This document shows positions 20,941-49,608 of a stretch of 64,000 nt of DNA, piece after piece. Origin of the DNA: Flaccisagitta enflata (lineage: Eukaryota). The translations under genes were made by a program, and so were the position numbers. The stretch covers positions 31,558,001-31,622,000 of the forward strand of contig OZ231126.1 of NCBI GenBank assembly GCA_965153355.1, given 5' to 3'. The notes below the pieces were generated by a model. The model ran no database searches. It saw nothing but the letters and a program-made list of their open reading frames with translations, and was not told the DNA's origin. Position 1 is the first letter of the stretch, and each line of letters opens with the position of its first letter.

Positions 20941-21284
20941 TATCTTGGCCATAAATATAAGCACAGTAGATGTATAAGTTGATTTATTGACTAGAAGTGA
21001 GCAGCAAACATATCAGACTGCATCTATTATTTAGTATGACCATGTTGGTAGGCCTTGATCTACAACTTGGAATTTCTAAGGCTGAAAGCGGATCTCGCTT
21101 TGAAAAAAACTCGCCCCCTGAAGTGTTGACTGTTGTTACAGGCTCTATACGCCACCGATCTAGGCGTTCTTGGTCTTGTTTGACGGAGATTTGATTTCTC
21201 TCGCCGTCGGCTTTAACTAAATATTATTATTTTCTTCTTAGGGGCCCCTAAGGGCCCCCAAAAAAGCCCTTATTGAGAATTTTT

Positions 21285-21700
21285 TTTTGAAAAAAAAGTG
21301 GGGTGCAATCAATAGGAAATTGTTTGATTTGCCTAGATCCAAAATCTTGTATTTTCAATTTTTTCAAAAAACTTAGAAAATTTTTATGTCGCGCGTCAGG
21401 GACTTAGAAAAAAAATCACAAAATATTTTTTTGAAAAATGTTTTTTAAAAGTGGGGTGCTATCAATAGGAAATTGTTTGATTTGACTAGATCCAAAATCC
21501 TGCATTTTCATTTTTTTTTTCAGAAAACTTAAAAAAAATTTCTGTCGCGCGTCTGAGACTTTGAAAAAAAAAATCACAAAATATTTTTTTGAAAATTGTT
21601 TTTCAAAAGTGGGGTGCAGTTGATAGGAAATTGTTTTATTCGCCTAGATCCAAAACCTGTAAAATGACTTTTTTCAAATAAATTTAAAATTTGATTGGGG
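21285..21700. repeat. ~155-bp tandem repeat, about 3 copies
   Basis: aaaagtggggtgc...ataggaaattgttt...ctagatccaaaa recurs near 21295, 21450 and 21607. Confidence 0.8.
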
Positions 21701-22455
21701 GCGAGTTTGAAGAAAAAGCGGAAAAAAAGAACGTCGGTTTTTTCTTTTACTTTTTAAGTATGAAAAAGGCCGTAGCTTCAAAACTATTGATGCGATTGTC
21801 CTGAAATTTGAAATACTAGCTGACGTCATGCTTCTCAACGTACGAGCTAAAAATCTCGATTGTGAACCGTCGTAAAGTTGGACACACTTCTTTGCCTAAT
21901 GTTGGGTATCTACCACTGCCTGCATGCACTTTGGCGTTGACTCGTAGAGAGACTGGAGGTACTTTGGAGTTATGTTGTTTCAAACCGTTTATGCGATTTA
22001 TTTCCACTCTGCTTTGCATGTTATTTTCCCCTGTTTTTGCAGGTTTTTTGTTTGAATCTTTGAGTTCTCAATTAGATTAAGATGCAAATTGATGTGGGCT
22101 AACCCTGGACGAGCTTAACTTGTCAATCTTACAGTATATTTGGCGCAGTGTCACAGTGCACCATAATCCATAAACTAAGAAAAATTTACCCAACCATACT
22201 TGCAAAAGGCAAATGTTTTATTCATTTGGCTCTCATTTCTAAACGAATAAAGATACAGGAACCAGCTTGGTCTCATTTGATAGATTTTTCGAAGATGCAA
22301 ATTTTGAAAAAAAAATCATCCCTAACCGCAGGGCTCATGACCGCGGGGCTTATAACAGCAGGACTCAAAACAGCAGGGCTAATAATCACAGGGCTCATAA
22401 TCGCAGGGCTAATGACTGTGGGGCTCATAACCACAGGGCTTATAATCCCAGGGCT

Positions 22456-25215
22456 GTGTGACATTCATTGGTGAAAACTGGGTGGCGTGTGAAAAACATT
22501 GGAGAATTTTGGGTTGTGTGACATACATCAGAGAAAACTTGGTGGTGTGACATACATCCGAGAATTCTGGGCTGTTTGACCCGCCTGTACTTGGGTCTTG
22601 GAGGTGTATATATATGTATGTGGATACTTTTGTATGTGGTGGGACCAATATTCAGAGAACCTGGGTGGTGAGAATGACATTAGAAGAAACCTGGGTAGTG
22701 TGACAGACTCTCAGAGAAACTGGGTGGTGTGACGGATATTTGAAGAACAATGGGTGGTGTGATAGAGACAAACAGAGGGAGAAAACTGTGTCGTATGTTA
22801 AACACTGGAGAAAACTGGGTGGTGTGACAGACATTTGGAGAAAAATCAGTGGTGTGACGTACATTTGGAAAAAATTAGGTGGTGTGACAGACATTCAGAG
22901 AAAACTTGGTGGTGCAGCGGACATTCAGAGAAACCTGGGTGGTGTGACAGACATTTGAAGAAACCTAGGTAGTGTTACAGACAATCAGAGAAAATTGGGT
23001 GGTTTGACAGACGTTTGGAGAAAACTGGTCAATATGTTAGACATTTGGAGAAAGCTGGGTGGTGTGACAGACAATTGGAGAAACCTGGGTAGTGTGACAG
23101 ACATTCGGAGAAAAGTGGGTGTTGTGACAGACATTCGGAGAAAAGTGGGTGTTGTGACAGACATTCCTAGGAAACCTGGGTGGTGTGACAGACATTCCAG
23201 AAAACTGAATGGTGTGAAAGAGATCTGGAGAAAACTGGGTGGTGTGACAGACACTCCAAGGAAACTGGGTGGTGTGACAGACATTTGAAAAAAACCTGGG
23301 TGGTGTGACAGACATTTGGAGAAACTGGGTAGTGAGACAGACATTAGGAAAAAAATGGATGGTGTCATAGACATTTAGTAAAAACTGGGTGGTGTGACAG
23401 ACATTCCAAAAAACTAGGTGATGTGACAGACATTTGGAGAAAACTGGGTGGTATGACAAATATCTAGAAAAAACTGGGTGGTGTGACAGACATTCCGAGA
23501 AACCTAGGTGGTGTGACAAACATTTGGAGAAAACTGGGTGGTGTGACAGACATTCAGAAAAAAACTAGGTGGTGTGAGAGACATTGCAGAATTCCAAGTT
23601 GTGTGACAGACATTGAAGAAAGCTGGGTGGTGTGACAGACATTTGGAGAAAACTGGGTGTGTGTGAAAGACATTTGGAGAAAACTGGGTGGTGTGACAGA
23701 CATTTGGAGAAACCCAGGTGAGGTGTTACAGACATTGGAGAATTCTGGGTTGTATGACAGACATTGGAGAATTCTAGGTTGTGTAAGAGACATTGGAGAA
23801 ATCTGGGTTGTGTGACAGACGTTGGAATATACTGGGTTATGTGATGGACATAGGAGAAAACTGGGTGGTGTGACAGACATTTGGAGAAAACTGGGTGGTG
23901 TGACAAACATTAGGAAAAACCTAGGTGGTGTGACACATATTTTGGGAAAACTGGGTGGTGTTACAGACATTGGGAGAAAACTGGTTGGTATGACAGACAT
24001 TTGGAGAAAACTAGGTGGTGTGTCAGACATTTGGAGAAAACTAAGTGGTGTGACAGACATTTGAAGAAAACTGGATAGTGTGACAGACATTTGGAGAATA
24101 CTGGGTGGTGTAACAGATGTGGGAGAATTCTGGGTAGTGTGACAGACATGGGAGAATTCTGGGTACTGTGACAGACATTGGAAAAGCTAGGTTGTGTGAC
24201 AGACATCGGATAATCCTGGGCTGTGTGATAGACATTGGAGAATCTTGGGTTGTGTGACAGACATCGGAGAATCTGGGGTTGTGTGACAGATAACGGAGAA
24301 TTTTGGGTTGTGTGACAGACGTTGGAGAATCTTAGGCTGTGTGAGAGACATTGGAGAATTTTGGGTTGTGTGACAGACATTGGAGAATTTTGGTATGTGT
24401 TATAGAATTTTGAGTTGTAACGGGTGGTCAAAAAAAAAGTGTTTTTTTCATTTTCTCATATCTTTTGTAAAAACATGTTTAGAATAAAACTTTTTTTTTT
24501 GCCACTAAGATATCGTGCAGGAAAATTTTTTTCATCATTATGATTTTTGAATATTTTCTATACATTTCAAATTATTTACAAAAAACTAGTTTTGATTTTG
24601 GACCACCTTCATTTTTGCCAATAATTTTCTGTAAAAGAATTAAAATTTTTTTATAGATTCACTATTTATAGTTAAGGACGACTCAAAAGCTGATAAAAAA
24701 CCAAAGAAAAAATTTAAAAATGCAAACATATAACAAAATAAAAAATACTTCTAAAAACATCCTTTTCTAATCTACTCAAATCTCTTAAACCAAAGCTTGG
24801 AGGCTTATAAATAATTACATCTATTTCAGATAGGACCTAATTAACATATCTGTTTCTTAAAAACAATTGATTATCTATGTTAAAACTGATTTATGCAAAC
24901 ATTTCAGTTTTTTGTATTAATATAGTCATCTATTTCGAAAGATTGACAAAATTAGATTTTTTTATACACATTACTTTATTTTTAAAATATCAACTCATAA
25001 AAAAAATTTCAAACTTATTGGAAAAAATTCTAGCTTAGTCACTTTTTTTTTGACCTCCCGGTATGACAGACATTGGAGAATCTTGGGTTGTGTGACAGAC
25101 ATTGGAGAATCTGGGGTTGTGTGACAGATATAGGAGAATTTTGGGTTGTGTAACAGACATTGGAGAATCTTGGGTTGTGTGACAGACATTGGAGAATCTG
25201 GGGTTGTGCAATAGA
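22456..25215. repeat. ~29-30 bp minisatellite (GTGTGACAGACATTTGGAGAAAACTGGGTG)
   Basis: Dozens of diverged tandem units, interrupted near 22580-22650 and at 24420-25061. Confidence 0.95.
24420..25061. mobile_element. Tc1/mariner-type MITE inserted in the 30-bp satellite
   Basis: TIRs cgggtggtcaaaaaaaaagtg / cacttttttttgacctcccg, TA on both sides, satellite resumes after it. Confidence 0.8.
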
Positions 25216-25809
25216 CAGCTTCAAAAAAATCTTTCTTGTGGGATATGAGAAGACCAGAAAATGAGTAGTCTTATTCAAATCACTGTAGCTTCCAAACCAT
25301 TTGAGCTAGAATTTCCAGACACAACTCAAATGAAAGATTTTTCGAAGAGCTTTCCAGGCATCACTAATTTTAACCTAGTTTTCTTTTGTTGAGGTTCAGA
25401 AGAAAGGTAGTAAAAATCCGCCACTTTTTATTTCCCCAAGGTTAATCTCTAAATCTGTAAAACCACATAAAATTACATTTGAAAAACTCAAACTAGAAAT
25501 AAAAGTTTATCACAAAATTTTAAAAAACTCGGAGTTTTTTTTATAAAACTTTAAAAAACCTAATTGCAGATATTTAGAAAAAAACTTCTGGAATTAAAAA
25601 AACGCATTTGCAGATTTTATAAATTATCTGTCTGCAAAACGTGACGCCTTCAGCCTTGTTGAAGCCCCAAACTCATCACCAACGAATCATCACCAACGTT
25701 CACTTAATCTTATTACACAAAATACGAATAGTCTCGTTTGATCGTTCACCGTTTTGTTTTTATTAGAACAAGTTGGCGATGATCGATGAATAAACTATTA
25801 ATTAGTAGC

Positions 25810-26364
25810 TGTGAAGAACCGTAGAAAATACTGTCTCGTACCGTCATTAGGATCTTGCCGTCCACGCAACTTCCGACTGAAGACGCCACTTCCGGTTTGA
25901 ATACGCCATCGCAACGCCAATCACGCCGATAACGTCACTTCCGGTGGCGCTGGTTCCAACGTCAGTCTGTGGATGCTATCTCTAATCACTAGGTAAGAAA
26001 GTGTATTTAAACTATTATATACAAGGAAGAGAAAGAAAGAGAAACAGAAGAGAGAGGGGGGAGGGGTTGGTTAATACCTACCTACTAACTAGCTAGTGTG
26101 TATCATCAGTAACTACCTCAATCAATTCACATCAATTGTCAACAAATGTAGCCAAGTACACTCACCACAGGTTCCACTGTAATCCCCAAAGTGCTTCCAG
26201 GTTGAATTGCTTGTTAAAATACACTGATTAACTGAAAGAAAGAATGCATCCAGAGAATCAAATATATCACCACAAGCAAATGAATAGCAACGCCAACGAG
26301 AGGACAATGAAATAGATCGCGGTACAAAGGCGCCAAGTGCCAAAAATATCAACGATATTCCACA
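25810..26364 (-). repeat. 3' LTR (555 bp)
   Basis: Direct repeat of 35195-35729; preceded on the sense strand by CCAACGGGGGGAC (PPT-like). Confidence 0.95.
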
Positions 26365-26490
26365 GTCCCCCCGTTGGAATCCCATTCCAACCAACACCGT
26401 CGCCTCAAAAAAAAAACGAGGAGAGACCAAGGACCAAGTCACCTGAATGAGCGGACGAACGGACGGCGAAAGGAGCGGCGCGAAACGCGC

Positions 26491-28377
26491 CTAGCGACGC
26501 GAAGGCGCCGCGCCACGCTGTCCTTGTGGCTGCGGAGCGCGCTGCGCGTCAGGATCGGCGGCAGGGGGCTGCTGATGCCGCTGCTGCTGCTGATACCCAG
26601 GACGCTGACCACCGCGTCCGTGGTGTCGAGGACGAGATGCTGACGGCGACGAGGTGGCAACAGGCGCCATCGCTTCTGTCGCCGCAGTTCGCCCGAGGAG
26701 ACAAACCCCGCGAAAAAAGTCCTCGAAACTCGACGGGGGGGTAGAGAAGGACGCGTTGGGGAGGAAGGGGGTTGCCTCCCTATAGCGTCGCGACAAGTCT
26801 TCATCATCAAGAGTCTGATTGGGCCGATATCCGCCGTGGTCGCGGCGCCAGCCTCCACGGCCGCGGCCATTACCACGGCCAGATCCACGGCCAGCTTGCC
26901 GATGATGTCTTTGAGGGTTGGGGGACGGCGCCGGTGGGGGGATGGATGAATCTGCCGCCGAAGCGGCAGCCATCGCCTTCCCCCCCTCCGAGTGCTTCCC
27001 CTGCTTCTTTGAAGAGGATGAAGAAGACGACTTGGGTGGATCAGCCTTCAAGGAGGCCTCAAGAACTCCTCCGGCTGCACCCTCCTCCTCCTGCCTCTTC
27101 TTCTTCTTGGAGGGCTTCTCCCTCTCCTTCCTTTCCTTCGCCTTATCCTTCATCTCCTTCTCCAACTCCTCCATTTCCCGCTGCATCCCTTCCAACTTCT
27201 TCTTCTTCTCCCGCTCAACCTCCGCCTTCACCTCTTCCATCTGCTTCCTCTTCTCCTCAATCTGCTCCTTCAACCCATCTCTCTCCTCCTTATACTCCAG
27301 ATGCCTCTTCCTCCTATTCTCCCTAAACTTTATATTCTTCCTCTTCTGCCTCTCCTGCTTCTTCGTCATTCCTCCCCGCTCCCCTTCTTCCTCATCCTCC
27401 GCTCCTCCTCCCTCCCCCTGTCTACGCACCACCACGTCCTCCGCTTCCAAGTCCCTCGGCTCCGGCCCCACATTCGCCACCGCCCCCGCACCACGCCACT
27501 CAGGAAGGAGAGGGCACCCCCACAATTGATTGGGCATCCTCACTGCCCTTTCCGGCCCCGCGTCACCCTTCGAATTCCACACCATCTCCCTCTTCCTCCA
27601 CTTATCCATCTCCGCCGTCAACAACCCATCCAACTCCGCGATCCTCAGCTTCCCCTTCCTCTTCTTTGCGTCTTCCGTCGCCACCGCCTCCTTAAACCGC
27701 ACCACCACCTCCGTCTCCTCCATCGCCGAGTCGCCGCGCAAACACGGCCACCGCGGCGGCTCCCTCGTCTCCGGCTCCCACAGCCCATACGCAGTACACA
27801 CCCCCGGCTTCTTCGCAAACCTCCGCATCGCCATCTTCACCTGCCCCTGGCTACACCACAACAACACCGACAGGTGACGCAGGCCTGAGCCCATCGCATG
27901 GCCGATCTTGTAGATGTCGAAGCCATCCTCGACCAGGACCCAGTCCATTTCGCCATCGACCTTGATCAGTTGGGCCACGTACACATTGGGGTAGCGCTTC
28001 TGACCGACATGGAAGAACACCAAGACCGCTAAATTGGTGGCCATGATGTCTCTCTGCGCTTCGGTCGAGAACTGCCACTCATCAAATTCTTCCGTCAATG
28101 CGTTGGAACCTCTACACATCCGGAAGGATCCCACCATGTCTCCTACTTCCGTCCTACTCTTCTTCTTCCTCTCCCCATCCTTCTCCACCGCCACCGCCAA
28201 CTGCGGACCCCCTGGCAACACCAAATCACTATTACTATACTCCACCGGCACCTCCTCCGACTCCACCCTCCTCGGCTCCATCGCCTCATCCTCCATCTGC
28301 ACCAAATCAAACTCGTATCCTCCTCCTAACGCCTCCTCACACTCCTCTCCAGTCACACCGACATGATGGGATGACAT
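26491..28377 (-). CDS. Extra ORF3 of the BEL/Pao element (~628 aa from ATG), unknown function, not env-like
   Basis: Intact ORF between pol and the 3' LTR in the same orientation; globular-looking N-half, E/K/R coiled-coil, RG-rich and Q-rich tail; no signal peptide or TM evident. Confidence 0.75.
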   Translation of the reverse strand: MSSHHVGVTGEECEEALGGGYEFDLVQMEDEAMEPRRVESEEVPVEYSNSDLVLPGGPQLAVAVEKDGERKKKSRTEVGDMVGSFRMCRGSNALTEEFDEWQFSTEAQRDIMATNLAVLVFFHVGQKRYPNVYVAQLIKVDGEMDWVLVEDGFDIYKIGHAMGSGLRHLSVLLWCSQGQVKMAMRRFAKKPGVCTAYGLWEPETREPPRWPCLRGDSAMEETEVVVRFKEAVATEDAKKRKGKLRIAELDGLLTAEMDKWRKREMVWNSKGDAGPERAVRMPNQLWGCPLLPEWRGAGAVANVGPEPRDLEAEDVVVRRQGEGGGAEDEEEGERGGMTKKQERQKRKNIKFRENRRKRHLEYKEERDGLKEQIEEKRKQMEEVKAEVEREKKKKLEGMQREMEELEKEMKDKAKERKEREKPSKKKKRQEEEGAAGGVLEASLKADPPKSSSSSSSKKQGKHSEGGKAMAAASAADSSIPPPAPSPNPQRHHRQAGRGSGRGNGRGRGGWRRDHGGYRPNQTLDDEDLSRRYREATPFLPNASFSTPPSSFEDFFRGVCLLGRTAATEAMAPVATSSPSASRPRHHGRGGQRPGYQQQQRHQQPPAADPDAQRAPQPQGQRGAAPSRR

Positions 28378-28632
28378 TCTCTCCGGGATGTGGCGTCCAC
28401 AACGATTGACGATTGTGCAAGAGATTGTCCTTAAGCGTGTTGACAATGTTAATGAATTTTTCCTACAATCCTTCAAACAAAGGGGCAAAATCACAAATGC
28501 AAATTCAATGTGGCAAATCAAAAACATGGGGGCTGGGGCGGGTTGGGGGGGCACGAGGGAAACACACCTAAGGAGAAAGGGGCAAAAATAACAAAATATC
28601 ACAGGCCAATTGAAGCAAAAAACTCGGCATAG

Positions 28633-31600
28633 TCACGCCGACAAACGCGCCGGGTCAAGTTCCAATCGGACTACTTTACTCCTATCACGTGTGAATTTCT
28701 TCCCATTTGCCGTCCTCACTACCACAGTCCGCACGACGTCGCCTCCATCAACTTCCGTGATGACGCCGGTGCGCCAATCTCCTCGTCGACATTGATCGTC
28801 TACCAAGAGGACGACGTCGTCAATCTCCAAATCTTTCTCCACCCTGCGCCATTTTGGTCGCGCCTGCAAGGCCGAGACGTAGTCTCTTTTCCACCTTCTC
28901 CAAAACGCATCGGCAATTGCGCGTGATTGGCGCCAAGTATATCGAAGCGCTTCTGCATCTGGAGGTGAGGGGGGCACAAGGTCGCAACCGGAAGACGCGT
29001 ATACACCAGGGCAAAGAAAGTCTATTGGCCGCAAAGCCTGGATCCCCGGCTCATCACCCACATAGGTAATCGGCCGTGAATTCATGGCCAGCTCTGCCTG
29101 GGCCAATACTGTTGCAAAGGTCTCGATGTGGAGATTGTCTTGGTTCAGTCATGAACGCCAAATGTCTTTTGCAGATTGAACCAAGCGCTCCCATACTCCA
29201 CCTCGATGTGGTGCAACAGGTGGATTAAATGTCCATTGTATGCCCGTCAGCCTCAATTCAGGTTTTGCGGACAAATTCCATGCTTCCATTTCCGCGCGCA
29301 GTTCTTTGTCGGACGCGGTGAAGTTGGTGCCGTTGTCCGAATACAAATGGCGAATCGCAGGGCGGCGAGCTTGAAACCGCAAGAGGGCGTCGATGAAGCA
29401 AGAGGCGCTCATGGATCTCAATATCTCGAAGTGCACCGCGCGGCACGCAAGGCAGGTAAAAAGCGCGACGTACACTTTGTGAGATGCTCTCCCGGCGATT
29501 TTGCAAGAAGCAGGTCCAAAAATATCCACCCCCGCGTTCTCGAAGGGCAGACACTCGTCACGCTGGAGTCGTCCTCTGCATCGTAGCAAACCGGCGTCGT
29601 CAACGAAGGGGCATAACGCCGCCAGGGGTGATTTTGCGGCGACTTTTCTAGCCCCAACCGGATCACATTGTTGCAGGGATTTAATTTCCGCGTGGAAGGC
29701 TTGGGATTGAATGGCGCTGATGATCAATTTTTCGGCGTCGGCCAATTCGACGCCGGTGGGCGCCTTAACTTTGTCGGCGTCGTTGTATAACGCTCGGCGT
29801 CGATTGCGGACGATGCACATCATGATCGTGCGTTTCAGCAGTGCGATGCGCCTCAATTTTCCCGTCCAAGTCGCCACCTTTTCGCTGACGCGAATCACCC
29901 ACAATTGAGGCGGCGTTCTTTTCGGCGTCGCCGTCGTCGCAAGGATGTGAGCGGGAAATGGGCGTGTCACGATCTGCTTTTCCGGCCATTCGTCTTCGCC
30001 TCGCCAAAGATAATCCGGGCCGTTGTGGAACTTGCCCCAATTTGGATCTTGGGCGAGCATCCCTTTGGACGAGTAGTCGGCTGGGTTGAGGTGGGTTGGT
30101 ACCCACCTCCACTCCTCGACCTTCGTAAGCGCCTGAATTTCAGAGAGACGATTTGCAAAGTAAACCTTGAACCTTGTTTCAGTGTCATTTAATTGCTTAA
30201 TTACACATTCAGAATCGGTCCAATTTACATAACCATCATAACTCCCTGTTTCTTCAATAATGGTGGCGCGCATTCTGGCCGCGAGGCGTGCTGCTTGAAG
30301 CTCCAAGCGTGGCGTCGACTCCATGTGACCCGCCTCCACATCCTTCAGAGGGACGACGTGCGATTTGGAGCATACAATGGACACATGGATTTCGCCATTC
30401 GGACCCTCGTAGCGGACGTAGTACACGGCTCCATACGCCCGTCCACTCGCATCCGAATACCCGTGGAGGACCTTTTTGCCGTCCTGCGTTTCCGGCGTCG
30501 CCGTCCATCTCGTGATGCGGAATGACTCCAAGAATTTGAAACTCGCCTGCCATTCCACAAACTCGTTGAGGGACACGGTTGGAATGTCTTTGCTATCCCA
30601 ACTTTCGACGACGCGTAACACTTTTTGCAGAATTAGCCTTGCCCAAATCACGAATGGCTCCAAAAAACCCAGCGGGTCAAATATAGACGCTATTAATTTG
30701 AGCATTTGTCTTTTGGTTTGCACATTCAATTCGGCCTTTGATTTATCTGGCAAAAAGGAAAAAGCATCGGCAGAAAAAGAGTATCTAAGGCCTAACAATT
30801 TCGTCGTGTCATCAGTGGCGCCGGATACATCCATTGGCGCCGCCGGCGCCGGATCCGTCGTGTCGCCTTCAAGAACTTCCGGATGGCTTGATCTCCATTT
30901 GCATAGATTCATGCCGGCGTCCTCGAGGGCGGCCGTGATGCCCACGCGAAAGTCTTTAGCCACTTTGGTATTGCGCAGTGATTTTATCAAATCATCAATG
31001 TACATGTTCCTCATCACTGCTTGAACCACGAGTGGGCCATATTCAGCCGAGTGCTGTTCCACGTGGTGTTGCAGAGTGAAGATCGCTACACAATTTGATG
31101 ATTTTGCACCGAAGACGTGGCCGAGAAACTCGTTCAGGTCGATTTCCTCCATTTTTTCATCGCGAAACCAATAATAGCGGAAAAGTCCTGCGTCTTCTTC
31201 GGTGACATAGATCTCGTGGAAGTAATCCTTAATGTCCGCGCCCACGGCGACGGGACCTTCACACCGGAAGCGCATCAACACGCCTCTGATGTCGTTGGCA
31301 AGTTGCGGTCCGTCCAAGAGCTGGTCGTTAAGGCTTGATCCACCCACTGCTGCTTTACAATCGTGGCAGATGCGGACTTGCCCGGGCTTGCCGGGCTTGT
31401 CCGCCACATGGATTGGAATTGTCCATCTAGGTCGATCTGGTGGCATGTTGGCGTGCACATTTGGATCTATTTTCCTCACGCGCCCTTTTTCCCAGAATTT
31501 TGCCATAGTTTCGAATGTTATTCGGCGCCTTTCCGGGTCCCGCATTAATTGTTTTTTCAGTCGAAATAAGCGGTCTAGGGCCATCGTTGGGGAATCCAAA

Positions 31601-32399
31601 TTGTTTAGTGCATCGCAAGTTGCTTGCCTTCCACCTTTATGAAGGACAGGGGTCCGGTAGTGTTCCGTTTTCGGATCCCACCTAATGCCTTCCTTCATTT
31701 GGCGGATGGCAAACTTATCACTGAGAGACATATCTCGCTTATTTTCGTCCACTTTTTCAAATTCACCGGCATTTATTCTTTTTATGGTTTTTGCCAAATC
31801 TGAATCAATGCTGTGAAAGGAGCAAAATTGCAAACAAAATATCGCGAGTCAGTGTTGTTTCTAGGGCCGATCAGACCGGCGCCGAGCGGCGTGGAAATTC
31901 CCATGGGCAATCCCTCGGCGCCTTTGTATGTCTCTCCGCCGATCCAGATTCGAGCGTGCTCCGCGCCGATTATTACGCCGATAGAGCATCCGTCGTCGCC
32001 ATCCGGAAACGCAGGAAATTCCAGGTCGACGAGATGCTCCATCCCGGCGGCATCCTCAGCGCGTGGTGGTCTGTCGTCCTTCGATGCGATTATCTCCCCG
32101 AAGATGGCGTTGTTGAGAGTGATCCTGTAGCCGTTGGTACCTTCAACTACCACATCTGCCACTTCCCTCTCTCCCTCCACCATCTTCTCAAGGGTGGTTA
32201 TCGTCATCGTCGTTTTCCTCCCACTTAGTTTCAGTTTTTACATAAGTCCTTCGACACGACGTGTCGGTTGGCGCCGCCATCCATCAAAGCAAAAGTTTTA
32301 CTTTTCTTTCACCGTCGTTATGTACAGCGGCAAAATCAACCTCCACGCTCCGTCGTCGCCGCCAACTTTGAAGACGGAGTTGGTCGAAGGCGCCTCATG
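28633..32399 (-). pseudogene. pol: BEL/Pao Pol (protease, RT, RNase H, integrase) broken by several 1-bp frameshifts and an internal deletion
   Basis: ALMDGGA protease, YIDD RT, YSDAS/PRLELQAA/WTDS/NPAD RNase H, GVDIFGP/SDNGTNF/GGVWERLV integrase, FWRRWKRDY C-terminal domain. Confidence 0.92.
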
Positions 32400-35099
32400 T
32401 CACGCAGGCCCAGATCCTTTTTCGCCGGCGTCTTTGTTTTCAACAGTTTGTTTTCCCGCCGGGTTAGGTTCCGGGTGCGCTAGAGGGTGATGGAAGCCGT
32501 TGCACTTGTCGCAAGTGATCGTCGACGGACATGCCTTGGCGAGATGGCCTCCTTCGAGGCATCTGAAGCAGATGCCCAAGTTTTTGTTGAATTTCCGGCG
32601 GTCCGACGCGTTCATCTCGCTGTAAGTGGGGCAATCCGCTAGACCGTGTTTTCCGTCGCAACGAGGACAGAGGCCCGGCGTCGTTTTTGAAGCCGGCGTC
32701 GGCATCGCGTCCTTCTTTGCGGCGGCGTTGGCGGTCGTCGCGGAAATTTTGGCCGATGCAGCGGGCTTGTTTTGATTGTTGTTGCGATGGTATCCTGACA
32801 ACATTTCAGATATGGTTTGCTCTTCATCAATGAAATCAAGAAAATCAGCAAATTTCAAATCTGAACCATTTTTCTTCCTATACCTCACAACTTTCTTTGC
32901 CCACTTATCTTTTAGGAAGGGAAGCTTCTTCTCGACGATCGTCTTGACCACCAACTTGTTCTCGAAGTCGTCCGCCTTTTTCGTCTCGGTTGCGAACGAG
33001 TGGACACTCATCAACCGCGCGTAGAAATCGAGCATTCCGTTGTGATCTTTTTCGTCGATCGCTTTTCCCTGCAGCACTTCGTCAAGCATCTCCAACGCGG
33101 TCTCTTGGCGCATCCCGAACTTTTTCGTCAACTTTTCCAACGCCTCGTCGACGGCCGACTCCGACTTCTTCAGCGTCTCCGCCTCGATCAGCTTGAAGGC
33201 CGATCCCTCAAACCAATGCTGCAACTCGTTCAGCATTTGCTTCTTGGATACGCCCGGGATCTCCATCGCCTCGTTGAAGATTTTCATGTGCTTTTCGAAG
33301 TCCATTCTCTTGGTCGTATTTCCGGAGAACTTTTTGGCGGGTCTTGCTTCTTTCAGCTGGTGGATAGCCGTCTGCTTTAGCGCCGCCTCCAACTGTTGCC
33401 GCTGCAGTCGCAAGATGCTCGTCATTAGCGTGTCTGAGACGTTTGAAGCATGGCTGCTCGCACTGCTGGAAGCTATCGACGGCGCCTTCGAACGTGTTGA
33501 CGATGATCTTGACGCGATTGACGAGCGGCTGGGGCTTTTCACTTTCTGAGGATGTACCGTCGCCGGTGCATCTGTCTTTGCCCCTGGCTTTTCGTCTTTC
33601 GTCTTGATCCCTCTCTTTGTTCTCTCTTGTTCTCCTGACTCCATTTTCTTTGGCTTCACGTCACCCAATTTACGGTAAGGCATTGTCGGTGGTTTTTTGA
33701 CCTCCGTCTTTGCCTCTTTTTCCTTGTTTGGGTCTTCGGCGTAAAGCTTCTTTTTTGACTTTCGCAGTGGATCCGGTAGCGATCTCTCTGTGATTGACGG
33801 CGTCTTCACCTCCTTCTTAGCCGTCGACGTCGGTCTCGACGTCACTCCGTTCACCCACGCGCTCGTCAATGCATCCGGAGTTTCGCCACCGAATGCTGCA
33901 CCTGCGGCGGTCATCTCCAATCCGGCGCCAGCGTCCCTCGACTTTTCTCCCTCCTCGACGGCGCCGCTTGCCGTTGACTGTTCGCCTTCATTCGCCGCTA
34001 TCAAGTCCTGCAGCTCCGCCGCATTTTTGTCGATGTTATCCATTTCTTTCTCGTGGAGGGTTTTGTCGAGGTCCTTTTGCCTTTGTATGTCTTGGATAAT
34101 GCTTTGATGATACGCAATATCCGCGTCCGCTTGCGCGTCGTTGGATTTTATCCGTTCCTTCTCGGCTTCCCTTTTTCTCTGTCTGTCTTTCTCCACCTGC
34201 CGTGACATCACCGTCGACGTTTTGCTCCTCTGGGATCCCTTTTCTGACGACCTCGTCGAACGTATCGTCGACCTGGCATTTTCCGCGTCGTCGTCGCGTT
34301 CGGGATCAGCACGTGGAGTAACAGAGGTGGTCACGCTTTGAGGTTTTTCGGCCTCTTTGTCTTTTTTGTTGGCCTCTGCCGCTGTCCGCAGTTCATTTTC
34401 GGCCAATTGGAAGCCGGATGGAAGTGGCCGAGCTTTCGGCCGAATGGAGTCATCTATGGTGAGTTCTGCTGCCGCCGCGGGGGGTGTCGCTGGAGGAGGA
34501 GGAGGAGGCGGATGTGACGGGTTTTGGCGTCTTTCCGGCGTCTGACCGCCGACTACGTTTTCGAGTACCTTTCTTCCGGCAGTCACTGTCAACGATACCC
34601 TCTTTTTCAATGAGTTCAGCATCGACGCTGGAGGCGCCGTCTCTTTCGTCACTTCCGGTCTCCTCCTTCTTTCCTCTTCGCCTTCACCTCTTCCGCTCGT
34701 CCTGCTTTCGTGCAGCAGCGGTAATCCCCCCAACGCCCCGACGTCCTCCGCCGGGTCGTCAACAGTCTCGTCGACGTCCCCTGCCGATTGCGTCTTGAAG
34801 TGGGATTCGAGCGTTATTTTGTAACGAACCATGTCTTGCATCAATTGTCCGGCCATTTCCCTGGCGTTGGGCTCGTTCTCAATTTTGCAGGCATTATATT
34901 CGTCTAAACGCTTCTCGTAGAGGTCGCAGAATGCGTCGCTTTTTAAGTTCAATTCGGTTTGCGCCTCCTCCGACGGTGTTTTTGTCGCGTGGTCGAGGGC
35001 TACCGTCATTGAGTTAAAGCTTTTCTCCAATTCTCGCCTCACGTGTGCCACGATGCGCAGGTCCCATACTGTGGCTTCGATCGGTCTGATGTTCGCCAT
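32400..35099 (-). CDS. gag: BEL/Pao Gag (899 aa)
   Basis: KFSGN...DFEKH capsid-like region and triple knuckle CPRCDGKHGLADC / CFRCLEGGHLAKAC / CDKCNGFHHPLAH, typical of BEL/Pao. Confidence 0.92.
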   Translation of the reverse strand: MANIRPIEATVWDLRIVAHVRRELEKSFNSMTVALDHATKTPSEEAQTELNLKSDAFCDLYEKRLDEYNACKIENEPNAREMAGQLMQDMVRYKITLESHFKTQSAGDVDETVDDPAEDVGALGGLPLLHESRTSGRGEGEEERRRRPEVTKETAPPASMLNSLKKRVSLTVTAGRKVLENVVGGQTPERRQNPSHPPPPPPPATPPAAAAELTIDDSIRPKARPLPSGFQLAENELRTAAEANKKDKEAEKPQSVTTSVTPRADPERDDDAENARSTIRSTRSSEKGSQRSKTSTVMSRQVEKDRQRKREAEKERIKSNDAQADADIAYHQSIIQDIQRQKDLDKTLHEKEMDNIDKNAAELQDLIAANEGEQSTASGAVEEGEKSRDAGAGLEMTAAGAAFGGETPDALTSAWVNGVTSRPTSTAKKEVKTPSITERSLPDPLRKSKKKLYAEDPNKEKEAKTEVKKPPTMPYRKLGDVKPKKMESGEQERTKRGIKTKDEKPGAKTDAPATVHPQKVKSPSRSSIASRSSSTRSKAPSIASSSASSHASNVSDTLMTSILRLQRQQLEAALKQTAIHQLKEARPAKKFSGNTTKRMDFEKHMKIFNEAMEIPGVSKKQMLNELQHWFEGSAFKLIEAETLKKSESAVDEALEKLTKKFGMRQETALEMLDEVLQGKAIDEKDHNGMLDFYARLMSVHSFATETKKADDFENKLVVKTIVEKKLPFLKDKWAKKVVRYRKKNGSDLKFADFLDFIDEEQTISEMLSGYHRNNNQNKPAASAKISATTANAAAKKDAMPTPASKTTPGLCPRCDGKHGLADCPTYSEMNASDRRKFNKNLGICFRCLEGGHLAKACPSTITCDKCNGFHHPLAHPEPNPAGKQTVENKDAGEKGSGPA

Positions 35100-35194
35100 A
35101 GTATCTGATGTTACCTGCGTGTTGTGCTCGTGTATAGTAGGGGGTTATAATATAGGGTTAGCAACTTTCACCAGCGGCTTTGGTGTTTAAATAC

Positions 35195-35729
35195 TGTGAA
35201 GAACCGTAGAAAATACTGTCTCGTACCGTCATTAGGATCTTGCCGTCCACGCAACTTCCGACTGAAGACGCCATCGCAACGCCAATCACGCCGATAACGT
35301 CACTTCCGGTGGCGCTGGTTCCAACGTCAGTCTGTGGATGCTATCTCTAATCACTAGGTAAGAAAGTGTATTTAAACTATTATATACAAGGAAGAGAAAG
35401 AAAGAGAAACAGAAGAGAGAGGGGGGAGGGGTTGGTTAATACCTACCTACTAACTAGCTAGTGTGTATCATCAGTAACTACCTCAATCAATTCACATCAA
35501 TTGTCAACAAATGTAGCCAAGTACACTCACCACAGGTTCCACTGTAATCCCCAAAGTGCTTCCAGGTTGAATTGCTTGTTAAAATACACTGATTAACTGA
35601 AAGAAAGGATGCATCCAGAGAATCAAATATATCACCACAAGCAAATGAATAGCAACGCCAACGAGAGGACAATGAAATAGATCGCGGTACAAAGGCGCCA
35701 AGTGCCAAAAATATCAACGATATTCCACA
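35195..35729 (-). repeat. 5' LTR (535 bp)
   Basis: Direct repeat of 25810-26364; by eye it differs by one 20-bp indel between ACGCCA repeats and one substitution. Confidence 0.95.
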
Positions 35730-37558
35730 GTAGCTTTGATAAGTCATTGAATATTGTGAAATTGTGAATTGTGACAATTGTGTCAATCCACGATAAGTAA
35801 AATACCATTCCTGTGTCTAACCATGGCAATGAAAAAAAAGACAGTAATTTCAATATGTCACAGTGCAAACGAATACAAAATTTGACAAGTCAAAACGATT
35901 TATACGATATTTCTTATTTTATATATTCAAAGATTTTTTATTGAGATAAAGGATTTGTGGTTGGTAATCATCAATTTTTTGCATAGGAAAACGTTTTTCT
36001 GTACCATATGCTTAGGAAATGTGAGAAAAAAGGATGCGAAATTGATGGATTTTTTATAAAAATTGATTCTTGTGCATTGACAAGTCTCGCGTGAAAAACC
36101 GAATCTGTCTCTGAATTCAAAATTTTGCATTTTGAAAAACATGGCATCAGTCTAAACACTTTAAAGAAACAGGCCATGTGTTTAGAAATGCAAAATTTTG
36201 CATTCAGAGACAGATTCGGTTTTTCACGTGGTAACATCTCATGTTTTCCGTGTAATTATTTTTAAAGAATTCTGTTGTTTCACTAAGTATGCTGCGACAT
36301 TACCGATGCAAGATCAATACCATTGGTCAGTTAACCGGTTTTTAATAAATCTAGGGAGTATTAAGCATGCATAAGACTCTAGTTTTTGTTACATTTTCGC
36401 TGCATAGCAGCATATTCCATCACAGAACAGAACGATTTGTCAAATTTGACGCTGTTCTGCACCACGACATATGCTCCTACGCACTCATTTTTTTGATCTT
36501 CTCAAAATCCTTTTAGGGAGTAACAGTTAATCAAATTACCTACTCAGCAAAAAAATCAGAACTCAAAAAAGTTAATTTTGAGCCTGTAGCATCATTTTTT
36601 GTGAAAAAACGTCAGAAATTAAAGAAGGGGAAAAAACACCATATTTATAATTTTTAGAAAATTCATTTTGACAGCTTTTACAAAAATTGATGCTACAGGT
36701 ACAAAAATGAACATTCTTGAGTTCTGATTTTTTTTCTGAGTCACAAAATCAACATTCTAAGAACGCCTGAGAAGATTTTTGAGGCTGCTTAAAAAAATAA
36801 GCTTGCAGTTACAATTGTATGTCAAGTGCAAATCATACGCCATTGATGAATCATCATTTGACAAATTATGCAAAAATTGTCGCTACAGCCACAAAAATCA
36901 ACTTTTTTGAGTTCTGATTTTTTTGCTGGGTCACAAATTTGTCATACCACTACCACCTAAAAGGATTTTAAGTTATTCCAAAAAATGGGCTTGTAGTGCC
37001 ACTTTGAAAATCACTGTCTTTTTTATTTTTACCATAGTTATTCTACAGTCTACACCATACACCATGGCCTTTGCGTTTTTTGTTCCTGACCGACCAACTG
37101 ACAAACATAGTGGTTTGCAGGGCCGCGTGCACGCGACTAAAGATGTAAAATGCAATGTGAGTTTTTGAGCAGTGTATGAAAACACCTTCTCTAAAGAGTT
37201 GGATGACTCAAAACTGAATGTCAGACCAATGCGATGATATGGCACACAGACCAACCCACGGACCGACCGACTGACCAACTGTTTCATTTTCAAAATTGGT
37301 TTGAGCGAAATTTGTACCTGTAGTGAAAACAAAGCCGGTCACACGGCTACCCTAGTCGCGTGCGGGTGGGCATGGGCAGTGATGGAGAAGGTCACTGGGG
37401 CATTTGGGCAGGAGCGGTGAGCACAAAATGCTAAAAAAACGCCAAAAAAGTAAAATGGGGACCAACGGACGGACGGACGGACGGACGGACGGACGGACGG
37501 ACGGACGGACGGATGGACGGACAGACGGACGGACGGACGGATGGATGGACGGACAGAC

Positions 37559-38572: not shown

Positions 38573-38936
38573 CTTCCATGTTACTCCTCTAACCCCTCAT
38601 TCTCAACCTTATGCCCTTACCCAGTATGAATTGTTTTCAGCTCTCTCTCCCTCAGCATCCCTCTCCCCTCCGATTCAACCCCCGGCCCTCTCCCTCATCG
38701 TTCCCTTGTACAAGAACTCGATCCCTAAATCCCAGTCATTGTTTTATGAATCTGCTTAATGATCAGTGACTGTCTGCTTATCTGTATGTTTATCAGCATT
38801 TTTCTCTGAACATTTTGCAGGTACGAAGTTGGGACATTCTTATTCACTTTTTCCCAACCGTTGATCTTTGGTGTGATTGTTTGTCTGTTTATTTGACTGA
38901 CTGTCATTCTGTCTGTCTGTCTTTCTGTGCGTTCTC

Positions 38937-39722
<786 letters not shown>

Positions 39723-40243
39723 GACGCCAGCGTTCCGTAATTTAATCCTTGCTCGCGTTTGTTATTTATTCCTGCCACAAGATACACAAAGGCCCAAATT
39801 GGATGTGTTTGGACGGTATTCACGATAATGACGGAAATATGATGATTTGATATCAGAGTGAACGCCCCCATTGATATGCCTTTAACATATATTTTCATAG
39901 TAAGGTTGTTGTTTCTGCGTGGCGAATAATAATCATAATTGGCCCAATCCATTGTTTACCACAATTATGAATACTTGACGTATCATTGATGTTACTGTGC
40001 GTGAAGTTGAAATAAATCTAATGGAAGAAGCACTCTAGGAGCCTTCTCTTGAGGGTTCATTCTTTCCTTTCCACCATTTCTCTTACTTTTCCAAGCTTTT
40101 TGCTCTCTAATTTTCATACTTTGTTTTCACTCTGTTATCCTCATGTACCTTTTTGCTTTCACTGTACCCTTCTTTTCATCTTTCATTTTCACTGTAACAT
40201 TTCCTTTTTCTTTTTTCTTTGTTAATAACAGAAGAGATGCTTA

Positions 40244-41759: not shown

Positions 41760-42092
41760 ACTAGAAATTAAGAGGAGGACGGAAATAAATAGTGTCGTCA
41801 GTCAGTCAGTAGTGGGTCTTTTAGAAAACGCAATGAAACGAGAATAAATAGCTATTTGAAATTCTGGTGGAGGCAGCAATCAAATGACTAGAAGTTAAAA
41901 CAGACACGGAAATAAATAGTGTCGTTAGTCAGTAGGTAGTGAGTCATTTAAAAGAATCAACGACGCAAGAATAAATAACTAATCTAAAAGCAATAATCAG
42001 ATGACTAGAAGTTGAAACAGACGCGGAAATAAATAGTATGGTCAGTCAGTCAGTAGTGAGTCATTTAAATATCAACGAAGCGAGAATAAATA
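41760..42092. repeat. ~120-bp tandem repeat, about 3 copies, abutting the Tx1 3' end
   Basis: actagaa...ggaaataaatagt...agtcagt...gaataaata recurs three times. Confidence 0.75.
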
Positions 42093-45000
42093 ACCGACCG
42101 ACCCAGCAAGCCGGCCACCAGGACGCGAGACTCGAATAATGCCACACTTCCCTCGAGTCTCGCAGTGTACCACTCTTCCACCAACTCCTTCTTGAGACTA
42201 TGGAGAAAGTGGGACCAGATCCGATCCACAGTTTCTCCAAAGCCTCCTGCTCTCACAGCTCTAAGGGACATCACCGCTGATCGGAGGGTAAAACCCAGTC
42301 TGTTACGTAAGGCAGTCCCCCTATCCCTTCCCTCCCTACCCAGGGCCATTTCTACCACTTCCACCTTTCTCTCTCCTCCCAGCGCCTCAATCTCTACACC
42401 TAGCTTTCTCCACAACTCCTTAACTATGGCACACTCCGTGACCACGTGCCATCTCCTCCTGGCCCATTGCCCACACAATGTACAAGTCCCATCCCCTCTG
42501 GCAATATAGGCATAGTCCATGTATGCAGTCCAAAAATTCAGGTTAAGTTGCCTCCAGACTTGGGATCTCACTTTGAAAGAACAATTTGACTCGTGTACTC
42601 TCTTCCAAATATCCGTCCATGTCACTATCACTCCTAGTGCCTGCTCCCACTTTTCTTCAAAATGTCTAGGATTGTCCACCTTGGCTCTAAAGCTGAGGTA
42701 GAGCTCTTTGTAAGAGGCCAACCTCACATCTTTATCACCAGCTGGACCTGACAGAATGTAGTGGGGTCTGTCACTCAGAGGGACAGGGGGGATTCTTTGT
42801 CTGAGGTACACCAGTTCAAACCATTGCTCTCTTGTAAGTCCCAGGCCTGAAAGACTGTCCCCACTCTTAGGATGCCCTTGCGGGTCATCCAGGGTTTGGG
42901 TGTTAAAGGGAGGCCTGCCTCATCGGTTATCATGTGGTTATGAAAGATGTGGTCATGTCCTAGCTTACCCAACCCACCTTGTGCCCTAACGGTTAGCATG
43001 GACCAAGCTTTTATTGCCTCCCAGTAAAAACCACCAGGGGCCATGGTACTCCCTGCAGTTCTTGAGCGCAGCTTCAGCTGTCCCAAGTCTGCCTGGAGGA
43101 CCTCTAGCCCACGGTAGCCGGCAGCATGACAGCCAATCAATTCTCCTGCCAATAGCCTGGGAAAGGAATCCCATGGCATTGCCAGGAGTTTGGCCAGCCA
43201 TGCTACTCTCTGGGCCCTCACCTTGTCCCTAACGTCCGCCAGTTGGGCACCTCCTAAGCCGTATGAGTCCCTTAGCCTTGCTGCCGACACCTCCGGTCTA
43301 CCTCTAAAGACCCAAGCTGCCACCTGTCTTTCTACCTCCTGGTACCCTACGGCGCCGGCAATATCAGGCAAGGGGGGAAAGATTGCGGTCCTATACCACA
43401 GCCTTGAATAGAGAAACATGTTCGCCACCTTGACCTTGCCAAGCTTGGACAGTGGACGACAACGCCACGCCCTTAATTTGGCCAAGATGGAGACATAATG
43501 CTCCTCAAAATTCGCAGCCGCAGCAGTAGAGTCCCCAATCCATACCCCCAGCACTTTAATGCGAGTGCTTTTCCAGGTGAAGCCATAAGGTTTGTCTCCT
43601 CTGCCTCTCCACCTACCTAGCCATAACCCCTCTGTCTTCTGCTGATTCAACTTGGACCCCGAGGCACGCTCAAAGAGACGTACCTCGCTCAAGAGGGCAC
43701 CCATTGACCCCACCGTTGACACGAAAACTTGCGTGTCGTCGGCATACCCACCTACCTTCTTCTCCGTCCCTGCAACTGTGATCCCTCTGATGTTGGAGTT
43801 CCTCCTTATCTGACTTGCCATAACCTCGGCCACCATAACATAAATGTGGCCGGACGGAGAATCCCCCTGCCGGTTTCCCCTCCCAATTTGTACCAAATCA
43901 CTCATCTCCCCATTAACCAGGACCCTGCTGTAGACCCCACTATAAAAGATCCTAACCCATTTGACAAAATCATCCCCATATCCCATTTTAGCCATAACCC
44001 GGAGCATAAACCCATGTTCCACCCGGTCAAAGCACTTCTCTTGATCAAGAAACAGCACAGCACCTTCGGTGCCAGTGCCGTCACAATACTCGACAACATC
44101 CCTCAATATGTGGATGTTGTCGCCGATGTGACGCCCAGGCACACAGGTTTGATCCTCATGTATTAGTTCAGGCAAAACAGCTGCCATGCGTCTCGCGATA
44201 GTTTTGCTGATAATTTTATAATCAGCGTTGACTGAGGATATGGGCCGGTAATTTCGAACATCCAAACGGTCACCCTTTTTATAGAGCAACCTTATGATAG
44301 CCCCAGCCATAGACTTAGTCAGCTGACCACTGCTGTAGATATGATCCACCACCATTTTGTACAAGTCGCACACGTCACCCCAGAATACCTTCCAAAATTC
44401 AGCAGGAAAGCCATCTGAACCAGGCGACTTTCCATTTTGGAGGGTTCTGAGAGACTCCCCGAGCTCTCGCACAGTCACCACCGCATCACACCGTTCACGG
44501 GAGGTGTCCGATAGTGTCTTTGTCAATGAGCCCAAGGCTTCGTTGCGTGCTTGGTCATCGTCACCCTGACTAGTAAAAAGGTCCGTATAAAACTCGTGCG
44601 CTATGTTTAGTACTCCTTCAGTGCCATATCTAACTCTCCCCTGGCTGTCTTTCAATGCGTATATCAGGTTCCTACCTGAAGCTGATTTCTCCATCCTGCT
44701 GATATACGCAATCCCGGGCTCTTTCCCTTCAAAATTCGGCACCCTTGCCCTTACCCTGCACCCCTCCGCCCTCCTTGCCTCTTCCTTTTCTAACAAGTGG
44801 TAGATCCTCTTCAATTCCTCCCTCGCCTGCTCCTCCTCTAGGCCGTACATCACCCTAGTCTCTAACTCCTCCTTTTCACGCATCAAAGCCGACACATACC
44901 ACCTCCTCTTACACTCTTTCTCCTTACTGTACTGCACCGCTTCCGTTTTTAGGGAGAACTTGAAGTGGTCCCACCACTGTCCTGGGTCCTGCCATTCCTG

Positions 45001-45840
45001 CCACTCCTTGTCCTGTTTGACCTCCCTGATTCTACCCCGTACAAGTTCAATGAAAGACCAGTCTTTCAACAGGCTCGCATTGAACTTCCAATATCCCCTC
45101 CCTACCTCTATCTGCTCATTGATCTCCAACTCACCCAACCTGTGCCCTCCTTCTTCTCCCAGTACTCGCAGGTACTGGCACCCCTTAACCCTCCCCTCTA
45201 GCTCACCACTCACGTAAAACCTATCTATCCTACTCCTTGCATGGCCCACGAAGGAATACCCCCTATCATCTGGATGTAAGAGTCTGTAAGGGTCAGAAAG
45301 TTCAAGTCCACTGATGATCGTCCCCAACTTTGCCCCCTGTCTCACATCATACACATTCATCAGCTCAGTGTCCCTGTCCCTTGGGTCCGTCACAAAGTTA
45401 AAATCCCCCATAACTACCGTCGGGACCATGCTATCCACGGCCCCTTCCATCTCACCCAACCATTCCTGGCGACCCGCAGGGTAGCCATACACCACCACCA
45501 GGTCGAAAATCGACCCATACACCAGACTCCTGACCCTAACAGCCAGGACTCTGCCACCAAGCATGACCCGCTCCGCCTAAACCTCGTACTCCCGTGAGAT
45601 CACCAAGGCCACACCCGCATATGAGTCGTCCAAATCTGGCGGAGAACATATCACAGTATAACGTTCAGCAATATCACGAAAAGCCTGACAGAAATCCTGC
45701 ATGCACTGACAATGAGTTTCCTGTAATGCCAAAGCCACCACATCACTGTTAGCAGAGAGAAAAGACAGGAGCCAGTTGCCCTTCATTTGGCCCCTGGCTC
45801 CCCTCTTTAAACCCCCTGCATTATACGTCAAAAACCGCAT
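42065..45840 (-). pseudogene. Tx1-like ORF2 (APE-RT-zinc finger) with an in-frame TAG at ~45577 and a frameshift near 42800
   Basis: Three consecutive ORF pieces (45577-45870, 42775-45564, 42065-42811) form one collinear APE-RT protein. Confidence 0.88.
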
Positions 45841-46030
45841 AATGCGGGCAAAAAAGGCAAACAAAACCAACAGGCCCCCACATACAGCGGGGCCCCCTTA
45901 CACAAGCGCCCGGAGGCGGCCCTGCATAAGCAGGAGAAAAAACGCACACCAAGCGGCAAAAAAAAGCCGGCAGGAAAAAAAACAGAAAAGGAACAAGGAA
46001 ACACGGAGGAGGAAAAAAGGAACACAAACA

Positions 46031-46114
<84 letters not shown>

Positions 46115-46388
46115 CAAAGGGAGAGAGAGAGAGATCCAGAGCAGACAAAAAGCAGCCAAAAGCAGCAACCAAAAGGCAACGGCCACACAGCAGCAAGGCA
46201 GAAAAAGGGCAAACGACCAGGACAGGCCAAACACAGCCAAAGGCCAAACAGTAAGCCAAAAGGCGCAAAACACGGGCAGCAAAAGGCCAAAAGGCCACAA
46301 GAGGCAAAGAACGCAAAAAAAGAGGCCAAACGGCCCAATGAGGCAAAAAAGCCCAAAGAGGCAAAAAAGAGGCAAAAAGCCCGCCAAC

Positions 46389-48782: not shown

Positions 48783-49529
48783 CGCAAAGCCGGGAAGAGG
48801 CGGCGTCGATGAGGAGGAGGCGTTGGAGAGGAAGAGACGTTGAAGAGGAAGAGACGTTGAGAAGGAAGAGATGTTGAAGAGGAAGAGACGTTGAGGATGA
48901 AGATGCGGAGGATGAAGATGCGGAGGATGAAGGGTCGGAATATGCCGGGACGTGGCACCGTCAGGAAAGGAAGATGCGCTGAGGCGGTGGAGGAGGCGTC
49001 GAGATGCGGCGCCGTTGAAGAAGAAGACCGGGAATGGAGAGAAGAAGAAGAGGAAACCAATCAGAAGACGGTAGTATCCTATGTTGACTGAACAACATAT
49101 ACGTTCTCTCTCACCTTAGAAAAAGGATAATGATGTCCTGAAGACGGGAAAGCCGGCGTCGTGTCGGCGTCGTGTCGGCGCCGGAAATGGCACCACGAGG
49201 AACGCCGGGAAAACGCCGGAAGAGAGTCGGGGAACGTCAATGAAACGCCAGGGAAACGTGGATGTGGAAGTCGCCTCTTTTATCGTAGACGTAGTATTTT
49301 TATTTACTATTTGACTATTCTAGTCTTTCAATTTATTCGTTTCTAGCCAGCCAGCCGATTCTTTTTATATTTTCTAGCCGTTAATTCAATTAGACGTAGC
49401 TTCTATTTATTACCACTTCTAGTCGTTATTTAATTAGATGTAGCTTATTTATCTATTTATCGTTTATTAAGCCGCTTACGCAATCTCTTATGGCACGAGA
49501 AGAGGACCAGACGTTGTTGTTGTTGTTGC

Positions 49530-49608
<79 letters not shown>

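Follow-up and report, generated by a model that had tools for sequence, protein, structure and literature searches.

A BEL/Pao retrotransposon of Flaccisagitta enflata with a candidate self-primer in its long terminal repeat

Introduction

What primes reverse transcription of a BEL/Pao retrotransposon whose 5' LTR is not followed by a tRNA-type primer-binding site (PBS)? The question is raised by a 9,920-bp LTR retrotransposon on the minus strand of a 64-kb stretch of the Flaccisagitta enflata contig OZ231126.1, the whole of which was analysed and is referred to here as the window. Directly past its 5' LTR the element carries a short sequence that is complementary to a stretch within the LTR itself, a geometry familiar from retrotransposons that use the 5' end of their own RNA as primer.

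One of these is Tf1, whose transcript anneals to the PBS through its first 11 bases and is cleaved by RNase H between bases 11 and 12 (PMC7175516); priming of Tj1 is similar (PMC4600332). Neumann et al. (2019) distinguished three primer types and predicted self-priming in Tcn1 (Ty3/gypsy) and TAR (Ty1/copia), using as their rule a complementarity of at least 10 bp starting 0–5 bp downstream of the 5' LTR (PMC6317226). For Belpaoviridae, the ICTV account gives priming by a host tRNA (Arg or Gly) at an 18-nt site, while describing BEL/Pao replication as poorly understood and assumed to be tRNA-primed (PMC8742986), and the BEL/Pao element Achilles has a tRNA-Tyr site directly after its LTR (PMC4580426). 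A full-text literature search, judged by its listings and by the passages checked, returned no paper linking BEL/Pao with self-priming, in keeping with an initial sequence-only reading of the locus that did not know such priming to be established for the group; De la Chaux and Wagner (2011) and the Sinbad paper make no mention of tRNA or primers.

Results

Structure and classification of the element

The features of the element are collected in Table 1. Its LTR boundary is fixed independently, by LTR–LTR alignment and by the 5-bp target-site duplication (TSD) GCTAC. The two LTRs differ by a single base (35608) and by one 20-nt indel behind 35267, which corresponds to a single unit of a short tandem motif (35255–35320; 25889–25910).

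Table 1. Features of the element. Coordinates are those of the window; all features lie on the minus strand, so that the sense strand runs from high to low numbers.
Feature	Coordinates	Strand	Remarks
TSD GCTAC, 5' side	35730..35734	-	5 bp
5' LTR	35195..35729	-	535 nt, TGTGG...TTCACA; LTR–LTR alignment and scripted coordinate check
TATATAA	35380..35386	-	sole TATA-like motif in the LTR, ending 2 nt before the 10-mer (-9 to -3)
Candidate self-primer GTTTAAATAC	35368..35377	-	inside 5' LTR; proposed start of R
AATACA	35367..35372	-	poly(A)-signal-like variant overlapping the 10-mer
Candidate PBS GTATTTAAAC	35185..35194	-	directly adjoins 5' LTR end ...TTCTTCACA (35195)
TGGTGAAAGTTGC	35161..35173	-	holds the only TGG (35173–35171) in 65 nt post-LTR, offset 21
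gag ORF	32400..35099	-	ATG 35099, TGA 32402–32400, 899 aa, CCHC knuckles, weak DUF1759
pol remnants	28636..31848	-	RT/Peptidase_A17/rve ORF 31848–29149; DUF5641 past in-frame stop
Third ORF	26494..28632	-	713 aa, charged, low-complexity, between pol and 3' LTR
Polypurine-tract region ...AACGGGGGGAC	26365..26375	-	G-rich; immediately upstream of 3' LTR
3' LTR	25810..26364	-	555 nt, TGTGG...TTCACA; LTR–LTR alignment
Second GTTTAAATAC copy	26003..26012	-	equivalent position in 3' LTR
TSD GCTAC, 3' side	25805..25809	-	5 bp

Pfam searches found Peptidase_A17 (4e-33) and DUF5641 (2.6e-21) in the element, together with weaker matches to rve (3.9e-4) and DUF1759 (0.0023) that both fall below the Pfam cut-off, and the named protein homologues include a 'bel12' polyprotein. 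TG...CA LTRs, a 5-bp TSD, a CCHC-bearing gag, Peptidase_A17, rve and DUF5641 are all shared with canonical BEL/Pao elements (genus Semotivirus), and the length of the element lies within the 4.2–10 kb reported for Belpaoviridae (PMC8742986). Judged from its domains, LTR termini and TSD, which all fit, assignment of the element to BEL/Pao (Belpaoviridae), already made in the sequence-only reading, is sound. Membership of the Tf1/sushi clade was considered and rejected, since pol has BEL/Pao domains, although the element may work like Tf1. The third ORF matched no Pfam family.

The copy is defective. The protease region upstream of the pol ORF is out of frame and contains stops, in-frame stops interrupt the pol region at 29149–29151 and 28633–28635, and the integrase H2C2 zinc-finger segment, present in 16 of 16 aligned relatives, is absent. 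These defects (28633–32400) are found despite near-identical LTRs; either the insertion is young and derives from an RNA that was already defective, or the copy is non-autonomous. No further copies or solo LTRs of the element were found elsewhere in the 64-kb window. The remaining window (1869–6978, 42068–54367, 20700–25300, 38780–39830) contains a DAAF9-like minus-strand gene, two LINE-like elements that have endonuclease and RT domains, one of them located downstream of an ORF that weakly matches GDSL lipase, and long tandem arrays whose repeat periods are 8–30 nt.

A 10-bp complementarity that stops at the LTR boundary

On the sense strand the 5' LTR runs straight into GTATTTAAAC, which is the exact reverse complement of GTTTAAATAC within the LTR. 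The pairing is exactly 10 bp long, being bounded on both sides by A:A mismatches (A35195:A35367 and A35184:A35378), and its PBS-side end coincides precisely with the LTR boundary. A search of the window for the 10-mer gave 3 matches, against 0.14 expected from shuffles. The first 20 nt past the 5' LTR contain no TGG, and hence no 18-nt tRNA site of the ICTV type. The sequence-only reading had described this arrangement: the placement of the putative PBS, its reverse complement in the LTR (which we find repeated in the 3' LTR), the end of the complementarity at the LTR boundary and the absence of a TGG-starting tRNA site all held when the coordinates were checked, as did the location of the TGG-bearing TGGTGAAAGTTGC some 21 nt into the leader.

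We assessed how often such a complementarity would arise by chance. Among 20,000 LTRs simulated under an order-1 Markov model, 13 had a complement of at least 10 nt at offset 0, and 105 had one when offsets 0–5 were allowed. Real sequence gave comparable figures: 12 of 8,800 pseudo-junctions in the element interior reached 10 nt (the true junction included), as did 228 of 107,718 in the rest of the window on both strands, a rate of 0.14–0.21%. The match is thus unlikely by chance, with a coincidence probability of roughly 0.001–0.002 for a single element, which is meaningful but not decisive across a scan of many windows.

Constraints on the primer

In LTR reverse transcription, minus-strand synthesis begins at what becomes the outer end of the 3' LTR. 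Because the start of the minus strand defines that end, the 3' end of the primer must pair within about 0–2 nt of it. Here the LTR end is set by the TSD and the junction reads GTATTT, not TGG, which rules against the 3' end of a mature tRNA (...CCA); on this sequence such a primer is very unlikely. The primer must instead end in ...AAAUAC-3' or one or two bases short of it, and to our knowledge the sole RNA with the required ...AAAUAC sequence is the element's own LTR transcript.

We can hardly credit ordinary tRNA priming at TGGTGAAAGTTGC, 21 nt past the LTR, and rejected this sequence as the PBS. It does hold the sole TGG among the first 65 post-LTR nt, but with priming at that point both U5 and the 3' LTR would be 21 nt longer, contrary to the observed 3' LTR, which ends ...TTCACA beside the TSD. 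The site also varies within the family, position 35165 differing in all contigs that cover it and 35178 being variable too, and the acceptor stem implied by TGGTGAAAGTTGC is A/T-rich, unlike those of cytoplasmic tRNAs. The expectation of a tRNA site comes from the 18-nt site that the ICTV account gives for Belpaoviridae (PMC8742986). No tRNA genes were found in the 64-kb window, and an Rfam search of 34900–35800 returned nothing close to any threshold.

A primer generated from the 5' half of a tRNA, as in copia-type elements, would share with the present junction a PBS that does not start with TGG. We therefore compared the post-LTR complement with the anticodon arm in 33 registers (PBS offsets 0–2 combined with primer ends at tRNA positions 34–44), applying the rules Y32, U33, R37 and stem pairs 31–39. 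Basic anticodon-arm rules were broken in 32 of the 33. The single passing register (PBS offset 2, primer end at tRNA position 38, loop TTTAAAT) was judged by only three weak rules, under which chance alone should yield about one pass.

The junction within the family and among relatives

Contigs of two DNA runs were mapped on 34600–35800 at a likeness of at least 85%, giving 811 pieces from one run (X1) and 98 from the other (X2). The family is very abundant and diverged: the X1 pieces are 85–100% like the window (34600–35731), the summed word depth in that run is 10^4 to 4x10^5, and all or part of 34600–35800 occurs in at least 20 runs, most of them marine metagenomes, from 11 studies. Variant positions lie close to the junction (35165, 35178, 35198, 35318, 35320 and 35324), the window having G on the sense strand at 35165 where all contigs covering the site have A, and none falls in either 10-mer (35185–35194, 35368–35377) among the 40 variant rows listed of about 61. 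The non-TGG junction is thus the sequence of the family and not a private mutation of one copy. With about 61 variant rows over some 1,130 bases, roughly one would be expected in any 20 nt, so that conservation of the 10-mers within the family is not significant and is no evidence for pairing.

Protein relatives (P0002–P0015) were found at identities of 92, 84, 76–77, 69 and 45–50%. Metagenome contigs yielded 10 loci at 26–57% identity, none of them with nucleotide similarity to the LTR or leader of the window element, and genome contigs yielded one locus (L012) without an LTR; a search of viral contigs with the pol alignment gave no relative, and a hit to the junction 17-mer among viral contigs (L011) was rejected as an unrelated chance match. 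None of the 12 loci compared is a close relative with a definable LTR. Two LTRs are present in only one metagenome locus, L005 (26% identity), where a single base separates the LTR end ...CTACA from TGGTCCC..., a normal tRNA-type site; as L005 has its TGG 1 nt past the LTR, whereas the window family has none within 20 nt, the window family departs from the usual pattern.

A second metagenome locus, L002 (34% identity), has the gag–pol–ORF3 layout of the window element, with an ORF at the ORF3 position (9031–10560, open at the contig end) that shows no similarity to the ORF3 of the window. Upstream of its gag (ATG 2277) lie a perfect 16-nt inverted repeat (1149–1164 / 1636–1651) and, nested in it, a 12-nt inverted repeat (1231–1242 / 1537–1548). 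They might represent a long-range structure of the leader, a pair of self-primer and PBS, or the insertion of a nested inverted repeat. We rejected them as a second case of self-priming, since the LTR ends of L002 are undefinable and an inverted-repeat insertion explains them equally well.

The relatives also differ in how gag and pol are arranged. In all three fetched relatives with separate gag and pol frames, the two lie in the same frame with one stop between them (L001 2068–2070, L002 4965–4967, L005 1493–1495), a layout that suggests read-through expression, and in L006 gag–pol is one continuous ORF. In L012 a single frame (2–3514) encodes rve, DUF5641 and a phlebovirus G2 fusion glycoprotein domain (E 3.3e-91), which by these domains marks it as an env-carrying BEL/Pao element of an animal; its filing under a Cytophagales MAG probably reflects eukaryotic contamination of that MAG.

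Signals for the transcript ends

Self-priming of the Tf1 kind depends on where the RNA begins. The sequence-only reading had cautioned that TATATAA lies just upstream of the 10-mer, and this caveat stands. A working TATA box directs a start about 25–30 nt downstream, and the placement of the motif 2 nt from the 10-mer thus argues for a start further downstream. Neither AATAAA nor ATTAAA occurs in the LTR; its poly(A)-like hexamers are AATACA and TTTAAA alone, both at the 10-mer. As the TATA-like and poly(A)-like motifs are all located there, the U3/R/U5 borders probably cluster in this single AT-rich block. A scan for bacterial promoters and terminators, not relevant to a eukaryote, was empty.

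The family is apparently expressed. One RNA-library contig (X16, record 10, 270 nt) spans 35378–35129 in one piece, joining the 10-mer, R–U5, PBS and leader and ending 1 nt upstream of the 10-mer; compared with the window it has three other letters and the 20-nt long form of the LTR indel. If this contig is a true transcript, the start cannot lie downstream of 35368. It is one contig from one study, however, contigs cannot show starts, and DNA may contaminate RNA libraries. Among the DNA contigs listed for X1 some also end here, at 35379 (2 pieces) and 35371 (1 piece), and the tract beside these ends (35385–35417) was skipped as repetitive in contig mapping. Since DNA contigs stop there too, the break may be an assembly effect of the variable, low-complexity tract upstream, and we rejected the contig end at 35378 as a mapped start because it comes from a single contig and DNA contigs break at the same spot. 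Cover by a further RNA run (X15) is confined to 34671–34907, and that of X16 begins at 35378, gaps in cover carrying no weight.

Two arrangements of these signals fit the sequence. Transcription may start at A35378 or G35377, in a context (ATAGTT) that we take to be weakly initiator-like, with the poly(A) signal just inside R; a perfect TATA motif then lacks its usual function. Alternatively, TATATAA may be the TATA box, with the start some 25–30 nt downstream and the 10-mer in U3. The 10-mer would then be outside the 5' end of the RNA and Tf1-type priming would be excluded; such a start leaves the primer unexplained, and the X16 contig is hard to obtain from true RNA that begins there. The tandem motif of the LTR carries what we presume to be ETS-like sites (CCGGAAGT / TCGGAAGT), which would sit downstream of a start at A35378 or G35377.

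Predicted pairing of the RNA 5' end with the PBS

When RNA 35377–35170 was folded, the helix between the 5' end and the PBS was present in both the minimum free energy (MFE) and the centroid structures, with a pair probability of 0.40–0.96 (starts at 35378 or 35377, four 3' extents). In the MFE fold this 10-bp helix closes a multibranch R–U5 domain. As a bimolecular helix the duplex has a free energy of -7.6 kcal/mol, 8 of its 10 pairs being A–U, which bears out an earlier caution that the match is short and AT-rich. The R–U5 fold is not more stable than shuffled sequence (z -1.48; 13 of 200 shuffles equal it), and the predicted fold contains no second, U5-IR-like coaxial helix beside the duplex of the kind found in Tf1. 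On these models, pairing of the 5' end with the PBS appears plausible but weak.

Discussion

We consider Tf1-like self-priming of the element from its own RNA to be the best explanation of the junction, with a probability of about 0.5. Transcription would start at or just upstream of G35377, A35378 being our best guess, and the 10-mer at the 5' end of the RNA, GUUUAAAUAC, would fold back on the complementary GUAUUUAAAC directly past U5. RNase H would then cut after C35368, and the freed 3'-OH would be extended with A35195 as the first base copied, so that the end of U5 produced in this way would be the LTR end that is observed. With 10 paired bases beginning directly at the LTR, the element falls under the published rule for self-primers (at least 10 bp, 0–5 bp past the 5' LTR). 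The proposal in the sequence-only reading that the element primes from its own 5' end is therefore upheld in part: the geometry, the absence of a mature-tRNA PBS and the family-wide junction, in an element with defined LTR ends and TSD, speak for it, and the transcription start, the RNase H cleavage and the priming itself are what we infer from them.

The arrangement is that of Tf1, Tf2 and Tj1, Tf1/sushi chromoviruses of the Ty3/gypsy superfamily, insofar as the PBS adjoins the LTR, is complementary to an LTR stretch at which the transcript is proposed to begin and replaces any tRNA-type site. The complement, at 10 nt, is close in length to the 11 nt of Tf1 (PMC7175516, PMC4600332). The element differs from Tf1 in belonging, by its Pfam domains, to another superfamily. 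Start and RNase H cut are in our case predictions from sequence, the fold is without the second helix, and a TATA-like box stands immediately upstream of the 10-mer. The closer parallel in the kind of evidence is with plant Tcn1 and TAR, which were likewise predicted from sequence alone by the same computational criterion; there the feature is common to most members of the lineage, whereas one family is examined here (PMC6317226).

What competes with self-priming is above all a cellular RNA other than the 3' end of a mature tRNA, whether a 5' tRNA half of the copia type or some small RNA. The 10-mer in the LTR would then be a chance match in its only AT-rich block, and the RNA would start about 25–30 nt past TATATAA. 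That motif, the sole TATA-like sequence of the LTR, speaks in favour of such a primer; half-tRNAs are, moreover, among the three primer types recognized by Neumann et al. (PMC6317226), and one of the 33 registers does fit minimal anticodon-loop rules. Yet that lone pass is what chance would give, the other 32 fail, and the complementarity would have to be a coincidence of about 0.001–0.002. A start near 35355 would also leave R very short, the poly(A)-like motifs being confined to 35386–35367, and a true RNA beginning there could not run from 35378 into the PBS in the manner of the X16 contig, unless that contig derives from DNA or read-through. We accordingly regard a cellular primer of this kind as unlikely, if worth keeping in mind.

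It is improbable, to our judgement, that the complementarity was selected for something other than priming, such as PBS masking, genome cyclisation, packaging or strand transfer, with another RNA serving as primer. The PBS would in that case engage in long-range pairing with the 10-mer either at the RNA 5' end or in the U3 of the 3' LTR. A structural role would suit a predicted helix that closes the whole R–U5 domain, and the long inverted repeats of L002 (16 and 12 nt, one nested in the other), which precede gag, might be seen as a parallel, but that locus has no definable LTR ends and an inserted nested inverted repeat could account for what is seen there. The primer would moreover be left unexplained, and the end of the pairing coincides exactly with the LTR boundary, as priming requires and structure does not. 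Self-priming, by comparison, accounts for that boundary.

If the element does prime itself, a known mechanism would be extended to a third LTR superfamily. It may tentatively be counted, at slightly less than even odds, as the first self-primed member of Belpaoviridae, and so as a third independent origin after Tf1/sushi in Ty3/gypsy and TAR in Ty1/copia; confirmation would mean that self-priming arises repeatedly, in all three superfamilies of LTR retrotransposons. Families of this kind would be systematically missed or misjudged by annotation pipelines in which a tRNA-type PBS is obligatory. Since the present family is both abundant and apparently expressed, its transcription start and its replication intermediates lend themselves to direct testing. 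Self-priming would also bear on the success of the family itself, which has multiplied to a very large number of copies in a planktonic marine animal: independence from host tRNA would be compatible with such massive amplification, and might even favour it.
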